Of a stretch of 64,000 nt of DNA, positions 36,473 through 47,494 are shown one piece after another. The DNA is from a virus. Location of the stretch: IMG/VR virus record IMGVR_UViG_3300025150_000004, positions 32,001-96,000 of that record. One strand, 5' to 3'. Position numbers and translations under genes: made by a program. How positions within the stretch are numbered: the first letter of the stretch is position 1; each line of letters starts with the position of its first letter. The notes beneath the pieces were generated by a model. It was not told where the DNA came from. It saw only the letters and a list, made by a program, of their open reading frames with translations, and made no database searches.

Positions 36473-36888
36473 TGGCGCTGAAGGACCGCAGAAGGGCCAA
36501 AGCCGAGCAGACCAATCCGGTTGACCGGGAGGTTCAGGGGCACTTGCAGGTAGCCCTCAAGGAGATCGACCGGGCCATGGCCGTTTACGGACGGATCTCC
36601 CGTAGTGCCCGCCAGGAGGACCAGCAGGTCGCCGGGCGGGCTCGGCAGAACAGGGCCATCCTCGAAGCGGCCAAGGCCCAGTTGTCTCGGGTGACCAACC
36701 TGAAGGCGGCTCTCGAACAAGACATTGACCTGCTCCCCGAGACCGTCAGGGAGCAGTTGTCCCGGGAAGCCAGTCTCAAGCGCCGGGCCGAGGATGATGC
36801 CAAGAGGCGGCAGCGCCAGACCGAGGAGTCCGTCCAGAATCTCCTGGCCTCGCTCGGAAAGGGTGCGTCGGGAGCGGCGGCTGAATGA
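36472..36888 (+). CDS. Hypothetical helical protein
   Basis: TAATG overlap; coiled-coil character. Confidence 0.6.
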   Translation: MALKDRRRAKAEQTNPVDREVQGHLQVALKEIDRAMAVYGRISRSARQEDQQVAGRARQNRAILEAAKAQLSRVTNLKAALEQDIDLLPETVREQLSREASLKRRAEDDAKRRQRQTEESVQNLLASLGKGASGAAAE

Positions 36889-38792
36889 GGCGGAACGACC
36901 CCAAGTACACCGTGAAGGTGGCCACCGTCCCCAAACGGGCTGACGTGACCGTCGGCAAGCCTGGGAAGGTGGTGCGGACCGCCATGCGGGCCAAGGTCGC
37001 TTTCCCGATGGCGGGAGGCACCACGCTGGGCTCGGGTGGGAACTTCTACTCTCCCGAGCTTTCGCCGGACTTCCTCGAACTCCCCCAGAGCATCGACGAG
37101 CAGCGGAACTATTACCGCTTCTTCTACGACCACGATCCCTTCGTCGGTCAGGCCATCGACCTCCACAGTGAGCTTCCCCTCTCGAAGCTCCGCCTCCGCA
37201 AGCCCCGGGCGAAAAACAAGGCGTTGGCGGAAGCCTCCATGCGGTTCTGCGAGAGGTGGGTCAAGAGCATCGGCCTGCTCCAACGGCTCCTGGCAATCGT
37301 CCACGACTTTTACCTCATCGGAGAGGTGTTCGTTTTCGCCGAGGACACCAACCCCGAGATGCCCAGGGAGGTCACCCACCAGCCGCACCGGGAGGTGACC
37401 CCGGAAGGCAAGATCATCGACGAGTGGACCGAGAGGGGGGACGCCCGGGAGCGGATGGTCGAGTGGATGAAGAAGAACTACCAGGGCTGGACGGGCCTGC
37501 GTGTTCTTCCTCCCGAGCAGATCCACATCGAGTCGTTCCCGTTCACGGACAAACGGCTCATCGAACTGATCCCCGATTCCAAGACCAAGAGCCTGGTCGA
37601 GCGGGCACGGCAGGGGGACGAGCGGGCGGCCGAGATCGTCGCCACGTACCCGGCCGACATCATCCGGCACGTCCTCGACGGGACCAACATCCCTTTGAAC
37701 ACCAACCCGATGGCGGGGTCGTTCGTCCACTATCTGGCTCGGAAGAGGGCAGATTACGAGCCCCGGGGCAAGAGCCTTCTTCAGCGGGTCCTCCGGGTGC
37801 TCGTGTACCGGGACAAGCTCCGCCAGGCCCAGACAAGCATTGCCTCACGGCACATGACCCCCATCCGCATCGTGTGGGCGGAGGACATGAACGCCGAGCA
37901 GACCGAGGAACTGCGGGAGCAGGTGGACCTGGCCCTTCAGGACCCGGACTTCTCCATCATCGCCAACTTCCAGGTCAACTGGGAGGAGATCGGCGGGGGT
38001 CAGGGGAACCGGCTCCTCGAACTCACGAGCGAGTACGACCTCACCGACCGGCAGATGTACGCAGGGCTCGGGGTTACCGAGTCCCTCCTCTCCGGCGAGT
38101 CGAGCTACTCCGGCGACCGTATCCACCTGGAGGTCATCAACGTCCGCTACCTCCTGCTGCGGGAACTCCTTCAGGACTTCGTGGACCACCACCTCCTCGA
38201 ACCGATGTGCCGTCGGATGGGATTCGTCGAGATCGACGAGGACGGCTACGAGGTGGTCATCCATCCGAGGCTGTCGTTCACCAGGCTGGCCCTACGGGAC
38301 AATCAGGAGACGTTCGACGCCCTGTTCAACCTCTACCAGAAGGGGTCGCTGGACATCGACACCATCCTCGACCTGCTCAACATCGACCCGGACACGGTGC
38401 GGGAGAAGCTGGAGAGGGACTTCGGGACGTTCAACGACGCCACCTTCAACGAGCTTCTCCGAGCCCTCTACAGCCGGGCTGGGGATGCCATCGTCGAGAA
38501 CTCCGACTTCGTCGAGCAGATGGCCGAGCGGATCCACGTCACCTACAAGAAGCCGAAGCCCGAGGGCGTGGCCCGCTTCGCTTCGGTCCAAGGAGACGAT
38601 GGCGAGGCTCAGGACCCGATGGTACTGCTCAAGGGGGCCGTCAAACAGGCCATCAACGAGGTGTGGGCCACCGACCGCCCGCTCACGGGTTCCGATTGGC
38701 CGAGGGCAGCCACCCGGGAGCCCTCGGTTGGCGACCTGGCCCAGCAGGTGGCCGACTTGCAGGCCCAGATCGCCAAGCTCCAGGGTGGCTAG
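36885..38792 (+). CDS. Portal protein
   Basis: YDHDPFVGQAID, DFYLIGEVF, LPPEQI, RGKSLL ... LRQAQ, AGLGV patterns; position after the terminase. Confidence 0.85.
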   Translation: MRRNDPKYTVKVATVPKRADVTVGKPGKVVRTAMRAKVAFPMAGGTTLGSGGNFYSPELSPDFLELPQSIDEQRNYYRFFYDHDPFVGQAIDLHSELPLSKLRLRKPRAKNKALAEASMRFCERWVKSIGLLQRLLAIVHDFYLIGEVFVFAEDTNPEMPREVTHQPHREVTPEGKIIDEWTERGDARERMVEWMKKNYQGWTGLRVLPPEQIHIESFPFTDKRLIELIPDSKTKSLVERARQGDERAAEIVATYPADIIRHVLDGTNIPLNTNPMAGSFVHYLARKRADYEPRGKSLLQRVLRVLVYRDKLRQAQTSIASRHMTPIRIVWAEDMNAEQTEELREQVDLALQDPDFSIIANFQVNWEEIGGGQGNRLLELTSEYDLTDRQMYAGLGVTESLLSGESSYSGDRIHLEVINVRYLLLRELLQDFVDHHLLEPMCRRMGFVEIDEDGYEVVIHPRLSFTRLALRDNQETFDALFNLYQKGSLDIDTILDLLNIDPDTVREKLERDFGTFNDATFNELLRALYSRAGDAIVENSDFVEQMAERIHVTYKKPKPEGVARFASVQGDDGEAQDPMVLLKGAVKQAINEVWATDRPLTGSDWPRAATREPSVGDLAQQVADLQAQIAKLQGG

Positions 38793-38844: not shown

Positions 38845-41800
38845 GTGGCGATTCCTGACCCCATCCTCGAAGCACAGGCCCGGCGGCTCAAGGCACGGCA
38901 CCAGGTCAGGCAGGAGTGGGCCAATCTCGACCACATCCGCCTGGCCCGCTCGTACCAGGAGTACGTCGAGGAGAAGAAGCGGGACAACGAGCGCCCGCTT
39001 CCCAAGGCCGAGTGGGAGAAGTTCCAGGGGAAAGGGAAGTCCGAGTCCAAGGGACTGAAGTCCCAACCGAAGTCGGACCGGGCCAAGGCTTTTCTCTCGA
39101 AGGCCAACTCGGTCATGAGCAAGGCGTTCGAGGCGGCCTCCCACAAGGTCAAAACGTTCATCGCCGATCCGGTCGAGCGGAAGAAGATGACCCGGGAGAT
39201 GGGCCGGAGCGTGAAGAAGAATGCTCCCCGGGCGGCCAAGGCCATGTGGAACGGGTTCAAGGGCGAGGCCAAGGCCATCGCCGTGGATGCCCCTTCCATC
39301 CTGTTCAAGATGGCCAAGGAGCGCCGCAAGCCCACCAAGAAGGAGCTTCACACGCTCTACGGGGTCGGCGTCTACGCTGCCGGGACAGCCTTGGCTTTTT
39401 CGGGAGCCACCCCTCTGTTGGCGGCAGCCAAGGCGTTTGGGCACAGCATCACCCTGCACGCCACGTTCAAGGCTATCCACACGGTCGCCGACGAGATCTT
39501 CCTCGGGACCGAGGCCGTCGAGTCCGTGGCACTCGCTGGGGGCCTCGGTGACAAGCTCCCTGTGATGACGAGCGACATCCCGGGTCTGAACCACATTTGG
39601 GATTTCATGGCGGAGACAGCCTCCCAGGTCACCAAGCTCCCCATGTTGGTCGCCGCTGAGGGTAAGGAGCCAGAGGGCGAGGAGGAGAAGTTCCTCTACG
39701 ACCTCATGCAGCGGATCTACGAGGAGGCGGGCAAGGTCTTCGAGAACCTCACCGACGAGGACATCGAGGCCATCATGGCGCACGGGGTTGATGCCCCGTC
39801 CGGCTCGAAGTCGGCGGCCTATTTCAACTCTAAGGAAGATCGGTTTTTGTCCTATTTGAAAAATAGGACATGCGAACCAACTGCTCTCAGCCAGGATGTA
39901 CCGACCCTGTCCATGCCCGAGGTTTTTGTAGGGCACACCGGCCAAAACCGCAGCCTCGAAAACGAGGTTTCAGGGTTGCTCCAGCCGAATCCGTTTGTGC
40001 GGTCGAGGGTTGCACAAACCCCTATCTCGCCAAGGAGTTCTGTAGGCAGCATTACCATGCCTGGTACAGATACGGGGACCCCTCAAAGCGATTTCGCACC
40101 TCCAACGGGCAAGGGAGGATCAACACGTCCGGGTACAGGGTCATTACGGTTGACGGCCAGCAAGTCCTCGAACACCGGCACGTCATGGAACAACAGCTTG
40201 GCCGGGCTCTCCTCCCAGGAGAGACCGTCCACCATCTTAATGGACAGCGGTCCGACAACCGGCCCGAGAACCTCGAACTCTGGTCGAGGCACCAGCCAGC
40301 CGGGCAGCGAGTCGAAGACAAGGTCCGCTGGGCACGAGAGATTCTCGGCCGATATGGCGACCTCTATCCTGAGAATCGCTAAGAAATTCGAGTTGAACGT
40401 TGGGGATCCAGTTCTTTACGGGAAGTACAAGAACAAGAAGGGTGTGATCACCGGGTTCAAGACGGATGAGAAGTCTGGTGACCCCATCGTAGTCATCGAG
40501 CCCGTCCCAAAGGGCCGAAAGCAGACCAAAGAACTGAAGTTGTTCAAAGTCCGTTTTGACGAAGAGCGGGCCGACCCTGCCAAGAGGGCCGCCGAGATGT
40601 CCAACCGGGCCTCCGTGGCTCTGATGCGAATGCTCTCCGACATCGCTCGTCGCCTGGGGGCGGCCCAGCACGTCTACGTCGTGGGTGGGGCCGTGCGGAA
40701 CTTCGCCATCGGCGAGCCCATCAAAGACATCGACGTGGTGATCGACTCCGTGTCCCTCGGCAAGGACTCGGAGTGGTTCGCCAACCAGGTGGCCCGAGCC
40801 ATTCCCGCCAAGACCCAGGTGGTCACCGACCAGTACGGGGTCAGCAAGGTCTTCGTACTTTCACCCTGGGAGCTTGCAGGGCACCAGATGCAGGACCCGG
40901 CCCAGGCGGCCGTGGAGATCGCCAACGCCCGCAAGGAGAGCTACGGCGGGGCCGCCGGGAAGGGGTACAAGCCGGATACGGTGGAGCCTGCCACCATCGA
41001 GGAGGACGTTCGTCGCCGGGAGTTCACGTTCAACTGCATGGCTGGGGATACCCTCATCCCCACCGAGAAAGGCATCCTTCGCATCGACCAGATCGCCTCT
41101 CGGGACGGGGGGGATTATCAGGACATCCGCCTGACGGTAGCAGGGCAAGATGGCCCTTCGACTGCGGTGGGGTGGCAGTACAGCGGGTTCGCCCCCACCC
41201 TGCGGGTGACGACCGAGTGGGGTCATTCCTTCTCCTGCACGCACCATCATCCGGTTCTGGTTCTTCGGGGGCACAGCCATGAGTGGGTGCAGGCGGATCA
41301 GCTTGAGGAAGGTGACCTGCTCTGTGTGCCCGTGCGGCAGGTGACGAGGCGAACTCCTCTTGCCCTCGACCTGCCTGACCCGGTGCAGCCAAAGCACGGG
41401 CGGTTCAAGGAAGTCTGCAAGCCCGAGGTGATGACGCCTGAGTTGGCGTTCCTGATTGGGTGTGTGTTGGCCGAGGGGTCTAATACCCACAAGCGGGTGT
41501 CATTCAGCAACTCCGACCCGGCCCTCATCTCCCGATACGTCGAGTGTTTCCACGCTACGTTCGGAGTCCAGCCCTCACGCAACAAAGTGGTCGAGAAGGG
41601 GTCCGTCCGTGTTTTGCGGGGGGTGGAGTTCGTAGCCAATGCCGACGGCTACGACATCTACGCCGACAGCAAGGCAGTGGTTGGGTGGCTGGAAGACCTC
41701 GGCCTGTACTGCGGGGGGTCCAAGAACGGCAAGTCCGCTTCCCACCACAAGGTCGTCCCGTGGTCCATCCTGCAAGCCGATGAGCGCAGCCAAGGGGCGT

Positions 41801-44800
41801 TCCTCGCAGCATATCTGGAGGGGGACGGCACCATCCGGCCCGACTCGGGGCGCATTACCTTCTGCTCGGCTTCTCCCCATGTCCGACAGCAGTTGCAGGT
41901 GCTTCTGGGTGCCCACGGCATCTTGAGCAAGGTGAAGGACAGGTTCGTCTACATCAACGCCGTGGACTCTGCCATCCTGTGGGAGAAGATCCAGCCGTGG
42001 ATGGTGACCAAGGGGTTCGACTACACTCAGCGGGACAACAAGGCCCGCACCCGCTACGGCATCCCCGCAGATTACATCCGGGGTTTCCTCGCTGGGCGCA
42101 AGCAGGACACCGGCAGCCGGGCCGTTTACGCCACGGACGGAGATGGATTCCGAACCCTCCCCGATGTCCATGAGCCGGTTCGGAAGGTTCAGCGGCTTCT
42201 CCACGATGCCCATGCCCGAGGAGACTTCGACGGGTTCATGGCGAGCCTCAAGGTCATCAGCCCGGACGAGTTCACCAAGCTCCGGCGGTTGTTCGACCTC
42301 GGCTACCAGTACGTCGAGGTCACGTCGGTTGAAAATGCGGGGCAGCAGGACGTGTTCGACATCTCGATGGGCGAGGGGGTCGAGCCTGCTTTTGTGGCGA
42401 ACGGGGTGGTGGTCCACAACACCCTCATGTGGCGGCTGCTTGACCTCGCCAAGGGGCCGGACAAGGCCGAGATCATCGACCTCACCGGCTGCGGGGTCCA
42501 AGACCTGAAGGACCGACGGATGCAGTGCCCGTCGGACCCGGACAAGACTTTCTCGGACGACCCGAGCCGGATGCTCCGGGCGGTCAAGTTCATCATGAAG
42601 TACGGCATGAAGCTGACCCCGGACACCGAGGCAGCTATCCGCCGGAACCTGCCCAAGCTCAAGCGGGCTCCGTTCGAGGCCATCGCCGTCATCCTCGAAG
42701 ACACCCTGCTCAAGGATCCGGGCACGGCGAAGAAGTCCCTGCCCGTGATGAAGAAGCTCGGCTTGCTGGACACTGTGGCCGAGATGATCCGTGAGAACAA
42801 GGCGTTCCAGGCCCGGATGGAGCGGTGGGTCACCAGCAAGCCCATGCTGTTCCTGTTCGACCTGATGGACCTTGGCCTTCCCCTGGGGGCCAACGTCGGG
42901 TTCCTCAGCCGGGACCAGCAAAAGAGGCTCCGTCAGATCGCCCTTGGGATGCCGGAGGGGGAGCCGGAGCGGCTCCTCGAAGTGCTCCGGCAGCCCGGGA
43001 AGGTCATGGACACCCGGGCACTCATTCAGGAGTTCGGGCTCCAGGGGCGAGAGATCGCCCAGATGCAGAAGGACGTGGGGGTGCGGCTCCTGCTCGACAA
43101 CCCCACCCTGGCCAAGAACCCCAGGGCGTTCACCGACGCAGTGCGTCACGAGTTTGCCCGGCGGAAGACGGCTGGTTCCCCGCTGGTCCAGTTGAACATC
43201 GACTTGGGGGAGGGGCAGAAGGTCGAGAAGGTCATCCCGAGTGCCTCACTGCCTTACCTCATCGACAACGTGCAGGTGAGGCGGGTGGCCGGGGCGTGGA
43301 TCCGGCGTCGGGCTACCCGCATCCGAGGTCGTACCCGCTACCTGGCCATGCTCGATGACGCCTGGGAGCCGGTCCGGGTCAAGCTGGCCAATCCCCTCCT
43401 GCCTCAGCAGTTCGTCCAGACGCTCAAGGCCCTGATCGAGAAGGTGAAGTACAACGAGGCTCGGGGTCTGGGGGACACCGCCGAACTCTGGTTGGAGTGG
43501 CGGGAACTCTTCCAGAAGGGTCGTCAGTGGGGCGATTACGTCATCGACCACACAGCCATCCCGTCCGGCAAGGCCAAGGCCGGGGAGATGGGGGTTCGGG
43601 TCTTCCGAACCACCTACGGGCGGGGCAAGGGGCCTCGCCCCAGCATCGCCGCCTGGCTCAAGAAGAACGAGCGGTACTTCCGGGTGCTGGAGGAGGCGAC
43701 CCGCTGGCCCGAGCGGTCGGAGGGTGACGGCATCTTCAAGCACGGGCCGTTCACGGTACACAACACCGTGGGGGCCTCTGACAAGGAGATCCAGACCGCC
43801 AAGGGAATCATCGACCGAGCACTTCGGGCACTTCCAAAGACCGATGTCCCCGAGATGCGCCAGATGGCCTACGGGGACCTGTACCTGGTCGGCGAGATCA
43901 AGCGGAAGCGGTGGGCCGCCTGGTACATGCCCCAGAAGGACGCCATTTACCTTCGGCCGAAGATCAGCGGCATTTCGGCGGACGATTCCGCCCTGCACCT
44001 GGTTCACGAACTCACCCACCGGCTGTGGGCCAAGAGGCTCCCCGCTTTGGTGAAGACAGCGTGGAGCGCCCACCACTTCCAGATGTCCAACAGCCGCAGT
44101 GCCCTTGGAAGGCTCCCCGAAGCCGGGGAAGTCCTGCCCAAGGAGTTGGTGGTCAACCGGAAGCAGGTCAAGGTCGATAGCTACGACGAACTGGGCCAGG
44201 CCGTGCTCGTGGACGCCAAGGGGGGCGCACCCATCGGCAAGGTGAACCGGGTGAAGCTCCGAGAATGGATGGGCAACATCGAGTTCGTCGGCAAGTTCCC
44301 CTCCATCTACGCCTCCTCAGACGCCGAGGAGCACTTCTGCGAGGCCATGGCCCACAAGGGGATGGGGTCCCTCTCGGCAGACAACCTGGCGGCGTTCAAC
44401 CAGATCGTGCTGGGCAAGGGGGGGCCGACCCAGAGCGTGAAGGTGGGGCTCTCCGCCCCTCCGGGGTGGAAGACCGAGAAGAAGCCGAACGGCTGGGTCA
44501 TCTACACGAACCCTACGGGAACGGTGCGGGTGCAGGACACCCGACGGCCTCATCCCGAGCGCTACCAGTTGCTCGAATGGGCGCAGCCCACCATCGTGCA
44601 GGACGGCAAGAAGGTGCCCCGTGGGCGTCCCCAGTGGTTGGAGCACCACGGGTACTCCAGGCTGCCCGAGGCACTGGCGGCCGGAGTGAAGCTCACGCAG
44701 CGGGGTCGGACGGCCTCGCATCACCACATCCGCAACGCCTGCCCAGCCTGCGGGAACGTCTCCACCTGTCGGTGCCGGGCACCCAAGACGGTCGAGACGC

Positions 44801-47494
44801 ACGACCTCTGCTATGACTGTCGGGAGTCAGCGGTCAGGGTCGCCGCTCGCTACAAGAACAAGAAGGAAGTACCCAAGGCCGACGGCAAGGGGACAACCAC
44901 CGTCTACGAGTACAGCGACAAGCAGGTCCAGCACCGAAACCGGGAGAAAGCCAAGCGAGTCGAGAAGCTCCGAGGCTCCATCCACAAGCTCCGAGCACAG
45001 GTCAAGAAGGATCTGGGGGCCGAGGACGAGAAGACCCGAACCGTCGCACTGGTCGTTGGTCTGATGGATCACACCTACGAGCGGGTCGGTAACGACGAGT
45101 CGGCCAAGGACGGCCACTACGGGGTCACCGGCTGGCAGGTCAAGCACATCACGTTCGGCAAGGGCAAGGCCACCATTTCCTACGTCGGCAAGTCCGGCGT
45201 GAAACACGAGAAGGTCGTGGACGACGCCTCGCTCGTCTCCGCCCTCAAGAAGGCTACCAAAGGGAAGGGGTCGAACGACCGGATCTGTGACGGGGAGGAC
45301 TGCAAGGTCTCCGCTTCGGACGTGAACGCCTACCTCAAGCCGTTCGACATCACGGCCAAGGACATCCGTGGGTTCCATGCCAACACCGAGGTTCAGACCC
45401 GGCTCAAGGCCATCCGCTCCAAGGGTGGCAAGCTCCCCGAGGACAAGAAGGAGCGGGAGAAGAAGCTCAAGGCCGAGTTCAAGCAGGCTCTCGAAGAAGC
45501 TGCCAAGGCCGTCGGCCACGAGCCCTCGACACTCAAGTCCCAGTACCTCGTGCCGGGTCTGGAGGACGAGTTCCTCAAGGGTGGTCAGGTGAGCGACAAG
45601 CTCGACAAGCGGGCCATGTCCCTGGAAGAGGTTCGGGCTCTCAAGCAGGAGATCCTCGCCGAGTTGGGGTGGCGGACTGCCACGAAGACCAAGGGGGAGA
45701 AGGAAGAGGAGGAGGTCGAGCGGATGTCCCGTCCTGCTCCCAAGAAGAAGCCGCCCCGGCAGGATCTTCGGCGGAACCGGATGAAGGACGACGACAAGGA
45801 CACCGATGGCCAGGGGGCCGACAAGGACAAGGATCTGTCCCTCAACTACAAGCGGGTAGCCCGCCTCTACCACGCTGCCGTTCTTCAAGACCTCGGGGAC
45901 CTCGATCTGATGCGTCTCGCTGGAGACAAGCAGCACAAACCTGGCGACGTGTGGAAGACCGAAAAGGGCTGGCGAGGGAAGAAGAAGACCCCGAACCAGG
46001 GAGGGCATTTCGAGGGGAAAACTTTCCCCGACAGGGAGCAGGCTGAGGCTTGGGTCGCCGACCCAGACCCGGAAGGCGAAGACGACCAGGCTCCCGACGA
46101 GGAAGGCAGCCGGGCTCCTGACGAGGAGGGCGACCAGGCTCCTGACGGAGATTCTTCGGATCGGCCCGACCCAAAGGCGGAGGCCCGCAAAGAGCGGGAG
46201 CGGCATCGGAATGAGGTTCGTCGCCGGGGCCAGAACTTCGACAAGTCCCTGGACGCTCTGGTGGACACCATCTCCCCGGAGATGGCTGAGGTTCTGATCG
46301 ACCACCTCCCCAGCGGGGACGCCGACAAAGCCGCCATGGCGGAAGCCTTCGACATCCACCTTCACGTTCTCACCGAGGTGTACCTCGACGACGATAAGGG
46401 CTTCTCGAAGAAGGGGCTCGAAGATGCCGCTGAGGTGGTGTCCCTGTTTGGTAGCCCGCCCGACCCCGAGAAGGGGGAGGAGGACGACGCCAAGTTGGAG
46501 GCCAAGCGGGACGCCGCCCGCAAGGAGAAGCTCAAGGAGTTCGGCGAGAAGACCGCCAAGGAGAAGGGGGAGATCCTCGCCCGCCTGCACTTCGCCACGA
46601 AGGTGGTGGCCGATCCTACGGTCGTGGGTGGGCGGTCCTTGGCAGGGAGGACAGACCCCGAGGCCCTACGTGAGCGGGGGTCCGAGGCCGCCCGTCAGTA
46701 CAGCCGGTCGTCACCAGAGATCCGGGCCATGGCCGCCAAGAACGCCATGACCGCCTTGGAGGGGATGGCAGAGGACGACCCGAACCGGGTGGAGTTGGAC
46801 GCCATCGTGGACGGTCTGGCCATCGCCGCAGGCTCCAAGGGGGAGACCTTGGAGGTGGACGGCAAAAAGCTCCGGCCCCGTGCCTCCAAGGGCCACCAGG
46901 TCTTGTACGACCACCTCATCAAGGCTGGGAAGCAGGACATCCTGACCGGCACCATGCACGACCTCTACGGTCCCGAGGGGCGTGCAGCCGTGTCCGAAGC
47001 CCTGGACACGATGGATGACAAGGAGTTGGCCGCCTACGGCAAGACGGGGCACTTCTCGGAGCTTGCGTCCAAGCTCACCGACTCCAAGGTCGGTGAGGAG
47101 CAGAAGGCGTTCATCCGTGGGTTCCTCAAGCGCCAAGGGATCGAGGACAACGGCCCAGTCGTTCATCGAGGCGGCCGAATCCGAGTCGGGAATCGCAGGC
47201 GAGAAGCTCGAAGCTCAGTGGCAGGACCACATCTCCAAGCACCCCGAGGCCAAGGCGTGGGATGACCGCATTCTCTCGGCTGCCCAGAAGGGCGGGGCCG
47301 ATCAGGAGGCCCTGGAGAAGGAGTACCTGGTCTGGCGGTCCCAGATGTACCTCGAATGGCTCCGTCTGATGGGCATCGACCTCCCCAAGGGAAACCCGGA
47401 GCGTGCCCGGCACGAGCACATCACCGACACCAAGGACCCCACACTGCTCGGGGAGAAGCTCGTTCCCCAGGGGGAGGACAAAAAGACAGGCTGA
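38845..47494 (+). CDS. Giant multidomain (polyvalent-type) protein: KOW-like domain, intein-containing CCA-adding/class II nucleotidyltransferase, HExxH zincin, zinc finger, type IB topoisomerase; apparent frameshift near 47149 (stop at 47265 as read)
   Basis: NTase: VVGGAVRN/DIDVV/RRREFTFN/DDPSRMLRA. Zincin: HELTH ... YASSDAEEHFCE. TopIB: ERVGN/GKSG/AKDIR/GH/QYL. Coding bias continues in the 46982..47494 frame. Confidence 0.85.
39870..40382 (+). CDS. HNH homing endonuclease overprinted in an alternative frame inside the giant ORF
   Basis: Two C-x4-C ... C-x2-H zinc modules, GYR, LEHRHVMEQQLGRALLPGETVHHLNGQRSDNRPENLELW. Confidence 0.9.
   Translation: MRTNCSQPGCTDPVHARGFCRAHRPKPQPRKRGFRVAPAESVCAVEGCTNPYLAKEFCRQHYHAWYRYGDPSKRFRTSNGQGRINTSGYRVITVDGQQVLEHRHVMEQQLGRALLPGETVHHLNGQRSDNRPENLELWSRHQPAGQRVEDKVRWAREILGRYGDLYPENR
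41035..42420 (+). mobile_element. Intein (462 aa, LAGLIDADG) in the nucleotidyltransferase domain, +1 residue Thr
   Basis: EFTFN|CMAGDTLI ... CTHHH ... IGCVLAEG ... AYLEGDG ... VFDI ... VVHN|TLMWR. Confidence 0.93.
46084..46149 (+). repeat. 24-nt tandem repeat, about 3 copies (DQAPDEEG-like)
   Basis: gaccaggctcccgacgaggaaggc / agccgggctcctgacgaggagggc / gaccaggctcctgacgga. Confidence 0.8.

Follow-up and report, generated by a model that had tools for sequence, protein, structure and literature searches.

Within a 64,000-nucleotide stretch of uncultured-phage DNA (the window; bases 32001–96000 of the 142,891-bp IMG/VR virus record IMGVR_UViG_3300025150_000004), a gene for an HNH homing endonuclease lies, out of frame, inside a much longer protein-coding gene, here called the host gene. 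CheckV puts the record at 27% completeness, which at this length points to a huge phage as its source. DNA of this locus is also contained in an independent Logan assembly, identical over 10.4 kb (0 mismatches), and thus the locus is not an assembly artefact. The features at and around the insertion, all on the plus strand, are as follows.

38845–47265, plus strand: host gene, a single open reading frame (ORF) of 2806 codons for a multi-domain protein of 2806 amino acids (ORF listing and Pfam)
38845–39819, plus strand: N-terminal domain and native linker of the host protein, ending ..AIMAHGVDAPSGSKSAA (homologue comparison)
39820–40368, plus strand: inserted element in its best-fitting extent, 549 nucleotides (nt) or 183 host codons (comparison of the flanks with the related locus L010 and with orthologues)
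39820–39869, plus strand: leader of the element, 50 nt, AT-rich, with a GC content under that of the flanks (sequence and composition)
39848–39870, plus strand: perfect 10-bp hairpin with a GAA loop, TGTCCTATTT-GAA-AAATAGGACA (arms 39848–39857 and 39861–39870)
39870–40382, plus strand: HNH homing-endonuclease gene, 170 amino acids, with two CxxC-type zinc-knuckle repeats and an HNH_3 core, in the +2 frame of the host
39819 joined to 40369, plus strand: presumed insert-free junction under the 549-nt model, ..TCGGCGGCC/CTGAGAATCGCTAAG..
40369–40620, plus strand: downstream beta-module from its native start, LRIAKKFELN-VGDPVLYGKYKNKKG..IEPVPKGRK..LFKVRF (beta-strands in the AlphaFold2 model, predicted local distance difference test [pLDDT] 86–94)

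The HNH gene and the host frame across it

The 170-residue product matches Pfam HNH_3 (E 1.4e-10) and is 40–54% identical, over its full length, to the products of free-standing genes of Gordonia, Microbacterium and Streptomyces phages and of many metagenomic contigs. In an alignment of 39 sequences it keeps every one of the 23 invariant columns, among them the four cysteines of the zinc knuckles and HH..N..DNRPENLELW, and its AlphaFold2 model reaches a mean pLDDT of 86.5. A Foldseek search of this model against the PDB returned I-HmuI as the top match, a weak one (E 0.21). An earlier reading of this DNA, made from its letters alone (the sequence-only reading), had proposed a complete HNH gene in a frame other than that of the host, and the Pfam match, the homologues, the invariant residues and the confident model bear this out. 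The two starts are offset by (39870 − 38845) mod 3 = 2, the host thus reading the HNH codon positions in the order 2-3-1, and the absence of any stop from ORF 38845–47265 means that the host frame is open across the whole gene; both points had been made in that reading, and both hold.

Scans of IMG/VR and of JGI metagenomes for closer relatives of the HNH protein gave identities of 58% or less, with no donor and no second allele, and at none of 160 HNH loci was the gene nested in a longer ORF of another frame. The phage genome carries a second HNH gene outside the window (205 amino acids; L002:1393–2010, minus strand, corresponding to G000:C1:116974–117591), which is free-standing, lies directly upstream of a ThyX-like thymidylate synthase gene (L002:498–1403) and has five stops in frame 2-3-1. 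In Mycobacterium phage MKC-IRE-02 (PP711298.1), tblastn gave an HNH-like match (L185:2501–2836; 34% identity over residues 23–137) on the strand opposite to the overlying annotated methyltransferase coding sequence; the match reflects either an antisense-nested HNH gene or a problem with strand or annotation.

Read in the host frame, the insert yields a low-complexity peptide rich in Ser, Thr, Gly, Pro and Arg, because the C/G-rich third positions of the HNH gene are the second positions of the host codons. Pfam found no match in this peptide. The GC content at third codon positions is 0.63 in the insert versus 0.80–0.87 in the flanks, so that the insert is foreign in composition. We modelled host residues 200–620 with AlphaFold2 on 29 homologous rows: the end of the N-terminal domain (to residue 314) is helical, residues 341–499 are coil without secondary structure (pLDDT 38–48), and confidence climbs from about residue 505 into a beta-barrel-like module (pLDDT 86–94). 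Composition and model thus agree with the S/T/G/P-rich linker described in the sequence-only reading, and the insert peptide is predicted to be disordered. Coil between confident domains places the insert in an interdomain linker of a beads-on-a-string protein, and on this model such a location is the most plausible reason why it is tolerated. That a protease might remove the peptide in the course of polyprotein processing, as had also been suggested, is pure conjecture.

Insert boundaries and insert-free relatives

A peptide-pattern search of IMG/VR for the N-terminal domain found none, and tblastn of the host protein across the junction against a phage GenBank collection gave no match; the relatives used here came from an exhaustive HMMER search with the N-terminal 328 residues, which returned 84. 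Three giant proteins (P0002, P0086 and P0087; 67–70% identity) share the order N-terminal domain, beta-module, CCA-adding enzyme and are without the insert. Their junctions read ..VMAHGVGAGGGGSKAAKTFTLE-KGDPLFTGKY.. (GSKAAKTFTLE-KGDP) in P0002, ..GGKTAKTFELN-VGDP.. in P0086 and ..GGKTAKTFTLD-KGDP.. in P0087, passing from GSKAAK or GGKTAK straight to TF[TE]L[END]-xGDP. Insert-free homologues, which the sequence-only reading had named as a check, do therefore exist, but they do not show the contiguous YFN-VGD that it had predicted. The insert-bearing form is known from just one allele, identical in three assemblies, with these 67–70% identical proteins as its nearest relatives.

The module closest to that of the window is in L010 (74% amino-acid identity), and codon-level DNA identity to it picks up again at CTG 40369. 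With 549 nt removed, the joined flanks read SKSAA/LRIAKKFELNVGD, against KEAALRIAKTFTLNVGD in L010, and reproduce the L010 motif AALRIAK.F.LN exactly; together these observations make 39820–40368 our best estimate of the insert, under which the last four HNH codons and the TAA come from native host DNA. Boundaries of 39820–40380 (561 nt) or 39829–40398 (570 nt) can also be entertained, because SAAYFN resembles a second pre-module motif (..AGYFN-LGD, ..ASYFK-AGD, ..RAAFFN-VGD). The frame is kept under all three, so that the removal of 570 nt first proposed was right as to frame, though its ends are not the best-fitting ones.

More than 30 other copies of the module in giant proteins start [RK][ITV]AK.F.L[NDE]-xGDP, which identifies RIAKKFELN as the native module start; the motif is present, as had been noted, but it is not supplied by the 3′ end of the element. 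On this conservation AKKFELN is native, and LRIAKKFELN probably is too. A similar correction applies to the 8-bp inverted repeat that had been taken for the element's ends. The repeat exists, and extends to 10/11 bp, but it was rejected as a terminus: its right arm is made up of the conserved native codons for K-F-E-L-N, and in its left arm six bases belong to the host's own codons, F-N. Since TTCAAC and GTTGAA are mutually reverse complementary, the flanking F-N and L-N codons pair automatically, and about 16 comparable inverted repeats occur within the same 1 kb. There is, in addition, a direct repeat—CCTATTTCAA at 39818–39827 and CCTATTTGAA at 39851–39860, 33 nt apart—whose first copy spans the left junction and whose second copy forms the 5′ arm of the hairpin that precedes the HNH gene.

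A different origin would follow if the host gene had recombined with a donor having a free-standing HNH gene just upstream of a separate module gene, in which case the 570 nt would be the HNH gene plus the 5′ end of the donor's module, and the recipient junction would have been SAAYFN-VGD (..SKSAALRIAKKFELNVGD..). The likeness of SAAYFN to the second pre-module motif speaks for such an event, as does the subtype of the window's module, which belongs with L010 and P0143 (74% identity, versus 51% to the module of the closest N-domain orthologues) and which co-conversion of flanking donor sequence in homing would explain. There is also a precedent in Pacc40 and Tiff81, where the same HNH gene is embedded in one phage and upstream of the gene in others. 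However, no HNH gene stands next to a module among 18 module loci or the 160 HNH loci, and the simpler 549-nt model arrives at the L010 motif with no need of a second one. We consider recombination with such a donor unlikely; it would in any case concern origin only and leave the present working of the locus unchanged.

Leu and Val codon usage and the open host frame

The HNH gene has 10 Leu codons (8 CTC, 2 CTT) and 11 Val codons (8 GTC, 3 GTT), exactly as the sequence-only reading had it when it counted about 21 and saw only CTC, CTT, GTC and GTT; 0 of 21 end in A or G, and CTG and GTG are absent. Genome-wide, A or G is the last base in 46% of Leu codons and in 45% of Val codons. Under genome codon usage the probability of 0/21 is about 2.6e-6, and among 3789 windows of 21 Leu/Val codons in the genome's genes not one is free of such endings (lowest single gene, 27%). 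The free-standing HNH gene beside thyX, an internal control from the same genome, has 15 of 29, and across 92 non-redundant free-standing homologues the fraction has a median of 0.52 and a minimum of 0.22. The statistical check that had been called for thus shows a real bias, with the embedded gene below all 92 homologues.

Avoidance of TGA in the host frame, the cause originally put forward, accounts for little of it. Only 3 of the 21 codons precede an A and could create TGA, whereas the other 18 would yield host-frame Trp or Cys, not stops. G and A are frequent at HNH third positions after C, A or G and, two Met codons excepted, are missing only after T. When the HNH amino acids were recoded in simulation with the genome's codon usage, the probability of no host-frame stop was 0.11 (mean 1.7 stops); a survivorship filter on rare in-frame insertions therefore suffices for the open frame, and TGA avoidance was rejected as the full cause of the bias. 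For comparison, frame 2-3-1 is open in 4.2% of 171-codon windows of the genome's confident genes (frame 3-1-2, 21%) and in about 3% of the 160 HNH homologues. L022, L030, L147 and L150, where it is open over the HNH gene alone, were considered as further nested cases and set aside as chance open frames.

Two published hidden HNH genes, in gp76 of Mycobacterium phage Bipolar and gp111 of Mycobacterium phage HokkenD, show the same depletion in milder form: 7/26 and 10/30 of their Leu/Val codons are of the form NTR (NTG or NTA), versus 39/69 and 21/44 in the host genes, and none of these stands in a stop-forming context. The NTR fractions of the three embedded genes differ from those of the free-standing ones (Mann-Whitney p = 0.005, with n = 3 embedded). 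With three cases, NTR depletion as a general signature of dual coding is suggestive.

Expression, host gene and known hidden endonucleases

Rfam with permissive filters (E up to 10) over 39300–40900 returned noise only, with no group I or II intron (RF00028, RF00029), and the 50 nt of the element outside the HNH ORF are too little for a ribozyme; a group I or II intron was rejected on these two grounds. An intein was rejected likewise, as the HNH gene is out of the host frame and the insert has no Hint or Pfam intein match, while the genuine intein of the same ORF (residues 731–1192) was detected. The sequence-only reading's view that neither intron nor intein is present is upheld, and no group I or II model fits. 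In bypass cassettes of the T4 gene 60 and mobA type, take-off and landing codons match, take-off is immediately followed by a stop, and the gap spans some 50 nt. Here the 570-nt version does have an AAC codon on each side, but TCT rather than a stop comes after the first, and 570 nt would have to be crossed, so that this class was rejected as well.

If the insert were nonetheless removed at the RNA level—by an unrecognised self-splicing or host-assisted intron, or by long-range ribosomal bypassing between the two AAC codons—the open frame would be incidental. Many phage homing-endonuclease genes travel in group I introns, the AAC codons on the two sides of the 570-nt version are identical, and an Rfam blank is compatible with a novel ribozyme. 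However, only 50 nt 5′ and 0–16 nt 3′ lie outside the HNH ORF, which leaves no space for a ribozyme core, and group I/II matches are missing up to E 10. The putative take-off codon is followed by no stop, a hop of 570 nt would to our knowledge be about ten times longer than any known bypass (T4 gene 60), and the AAC repeat consists of native host codons, RIAKKFELN being conserved. Moreover, a host frame that was never read would leave the extreme NTG/NTA depletion without an explanation. In phage introns the exon frame normally meets a stop after no more than tens of bases (PMC11855218); the host frame here is open. All told, removal from the RNA strikes us as highly improbable.

How the endonuclease would be made is suggested by its leader. 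A TAG (39864–39866) closes the HNH frame upstream of the start codon, and the 3′ arm of the perfect hairpin takes in a Shine-Dalgarno-like box, AGGA, together with the first base of the HNH start codon, ATG. Perfect hairpins of at least 10 bp number about 11 in the 143 kb. Hairpins that sequester a ribosome-binding site (RBS) and are relieved by late transcripts control I-TevI, I-TevII, I-TevIII, segB and mobE (PMC2988022), and by analogy it is a reasonable inference that this hairpin is a candidate translational control element for the HNH gene. A promoter and terminator scan found none at the insert.

A precedent for an intruding endonuclease gene that leaves its host in two parts is mobE, a free-standing HNH gene within nrdA of Aeromonas phage Aeh1, described as 'genes in pieces' (Friedrich et al. 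2007, as cited in PMC2988022). As that citing source presents it, the likeness lies in an HNH gene without intron or intein within a functional phage gene, and in an RNA hairpin that sequesters the RBS; the difference is that mobE, through a stop and a new start, divides nrdA into two ORFs whose products reassemble, whereas the window's host frame reads through. A split gene of this type was accordingly rejected: the host frame has no stop and, with an in-frame ATG at 40354 notwithstanding, the ORFs are not separated.

The host gene could still be in pieces functionally, with an ORF that is continuous only formally: the N-terminal domain would carry a useless C-terminal tail, and the downstream modules would come mainly from re-initiation at ATG 40354 (MATSILRIAKKFELNVGD..) or from release by a protease. 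The mobE precedent, so far as it is cited in PMC2988022, is in favour. The N-terminal domain stands alone (about 300 residues) in P0004, P0007, P0009, P0010 and P0012, the beta-module is N-terminal in proteins of other phages (L015, P0089, P0100, P0119), the ATG precedes VGD by 15 codons and has a weak GAGAG box 12 nt in front of it, and an HExxH zincin is part of the same ORF. Yet ribosomes starting at 38845 meet no stop and must enter the downstream modules, the architecture of the closest orthologues is the fused one, and no strong RBS is present. The ATG itself is within HNH-derived sequence (the conserved ..RYGDL.. of HNH homologues spans it), so its position may be coincidence; a homology of M504 with the start Met of L015 and L010 was for this reason rejected as evidence. 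A functionally divided gene is, in our judgement, a distinctly poor bet.

We favour, as the probable account, an HNH homing-endonuclease gene inserted in a linker of the host protein, with the host frame read through and the endonuclease made separately. A free-standing-type HNH gene with its 50-nt leader would have entered the gene of a giant polyvalent virion-associated protein, in the linker that joins its N-terminal domain to the module that follows. As the insert is a multiple of three and stop-free in the host frame, host ribosomes would pass through it in phase 2-3-1, adding about 183 low-complexity residues, predicted to be disordered, between two independently folding modules, and the host protein would tolerate the longer linker. 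The endonuclease would arise by internal initiation at ATG 39870, which the hairpin over its RBS probably holds low or timed, as in T4 homing-endonuclease genes, and the element would spread by cutting insert-free alleles and being copied in at repair. The near-absence of stop-prone NTG and NTA codons may reflect survivorship, selection for an HNH allele that is harmless in the host frame, or both. In essence, the selfish dual-coded insertion proposed in the sequence-only reading is supported by the intact HNH gene, the continuous host ORF and the insert-free orthologues.

Several points weigh against this account. Read-through translation, internal initiation and endonuclease activity are all things that we infer. 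The insert-bearing form is a single allele, which leaves conservation of the open frame and a homing-like disjunct distribution as suppositions. Even the nearest orthologues that lack the insert reach no more than 67–70% identity, and their downstream module is of another subtype (GDPLFTGKYLNSPG against GDPVLYGKYKNKKG), which makes the exact ancestral junction uncertain. The codon bias goes far beyond what stop avoidance needs, given three relevant sites and a probability of an open frame of about 0.11, and is partly unexplained. Finally, the Rfam blank leaves room for an unknown splicing mechanism.

The gene that received the element lies directly downstream of a Mu-like portal gene (36885–38792). 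Pfam matches in its ORF are PolyA_pol, Intein_splicing, LAGLIDADG_3 and Topoisom_I, and the protein comprises the N-terminal domain, an SH3/KOW-like beta-module, an intein-split nucleotidyltransferase of the CCA-adding/poly(A)-polymerase type, an HExxH zincin (spotted by eye, not by Pfam) and a topoisomerase IB core. Giant homologues, about 65 in number and 1.5–4.5 thousand residues long, are encoded on phage contigs that reach 528 kb, and their modules come in shuffled order. With unrelated enzyme domains on a single polypeptide and a head-morphogenesis neighbourhood, the host gene is by its sequence of the polyvalent protein class known from phages and conjugative elements (Iyer, Burroughs, Anand, de Souza & Aravind 2017, J Bacteriol 199:e00245-17, PMC5512222). 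It resembles the proteins described there in its many unrelated enzymatic domains, a head module beside the portal gene, a zincin-type peptidase domain and modules shuffled between relatives; homing-endonuclease genes overprinted in linkers are not described in that work.

Many relatives of the N-terminal domain stand alone and end near ..ILEH or ..VLENG, which places the end of the window's domain at about residue 314 (AIMAHGV), followed by linker; in P0001, P0002, P0003, P0005, P0086 and P0087 the domain is joined to further modules. It includes a hydrophobic GVGVYAAGTALAFSGATPLLAAA stretch and, in some phages, is C-terminal in proteins of 650–1000 residues. The beta-module, of about 70 residues (xGDPvLYGKYKNKKG..IEPvPKGRK..LFKvR; also in L004–L020 and P0089–P0146), has a lead-in of [RK][ITV]AK.F.L[NDE] or ..A.[YF]F[NKE], occurs at differing positions in dozens of giant polyvalent proteins, N-terminally in some, and may be a targeting or cleavage-site module. 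Pfam gave no significant match for either of the two. The genuine LAGLIDADG intein (41035–42420, plus strand; residues C731–N1192) splits the nucleotidyltransferase at REFTFN/C..VVHN/TLMW; orthologues P0002 and P0005 read REFTFNTLMW without it, and L004 and L005 have it. One gene thus houses two different selfish elements.

Selfish endonuclease genes whose insertion in a coding sequence is harmless are familiar from introns such as those of I-HmuI and I-TevIII and from homing-endonuclease inteins. The window element differs from these in having neither ribozyme nor Hint domain and an endonuclease out of the host frame, and its harmlessness would come from a tolerated extra peptide, not from splicing. 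A closer counterpart is the ShiLan domain, a 202-codon insertion in a mycobacteriophage DNA methylase gene, with a stop-free host frame, a 195-amino-acid zinc-finger and HNH protein in the third frame and no detectable intron or intein (Arsenault, Gosselin & Gogarten 2025, Genes 16:178, PMC11855218). The same paper reports a second, unrelated hidden HNH in Pacc40 gp60, and codon usage was not analysed in it.

Both insertions lie inside a protein-coding gene, are missing from orthologues and lack intron and intein signatures. In both, the host frame is open across some 190–200 codons, and a complete zinc-finger and HNH ORF occupies the host's third frame, an offset that we checked in Bipolar gp76 and HokkenD gp111. 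Within the insert, the HNH gene starts a few tens of bases from the 5′ end and stops at the 3′ junction or right next to it; the ShiLan stop, in the final four bases of its insert, is echoed by the window's HNH stop in host DNA. The host-frame product is predicted to be disordered while the HNH frame folds, and the HNH cores are homologous (58% identity over residues 84–140). The differences concern the host, a giant polyvalent virion protein against a methylase; the phage, an uncultured huge one (143-kb fragment) against 50–110 kb temperate actinophages; and the site, an interdomain linker against a conserved catalytic region. They extend to the start, an ATG with a Shine-Dalgarno-like box in a perfect hairpin against a GTG without RBS, and to NTG/NTA Leu/Val codons, which are depleted completely in the window (0/21) and stand at 27–33% in the mycobacteriophage elements; the window element, moreover, is known from one allele, and homing by it is putative. 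Every structural hallmark of the ShiLan type that we looked for is found, at the level of sequence, in the window element, which is an independent member of this already published kind of hidden HNH, not a new kind.

Hiding out of frame in an intact host ORF is thus not peculiar to mycobacteriophage methylases, and occurs also in the polyvalent proteins of uncultured huge phages. Because gene callers report the 2806-amino-acid ORF alone and discard the gene nested in it, such elements are systematically invisible in protein databases. The depletion of NTG and NTA among Leu and Val codons offers a new quantitative handle that could help to decide whether dual coding is selected and to find more cases, and the insertion site identifies the LRIAK.F.LN-xGDP module boundary as able to accommodate some 180 additional residues. 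Speculatively, and with more doubt than belief on our side, frame-embedded HNH genes may follow a distinct homing-endonuclease lifestyle adapted to read-through, with a preference for the third frame and translation gated by a hairpin that is opened by host-frame ribosomes or by an internal late promoter. Their codon usage would be shaped towards a stop-proof and benign host-frame reading, rich in Ser, Thr, Pro and Gly and free of Cys, Trp and Tyr other than those imposed by Met codons. If this were true, NTG/NTA depletion would be a general, searchable signature, and many 'low-complexity linkers' of giant phage proteins would be overprinted selfish genes.

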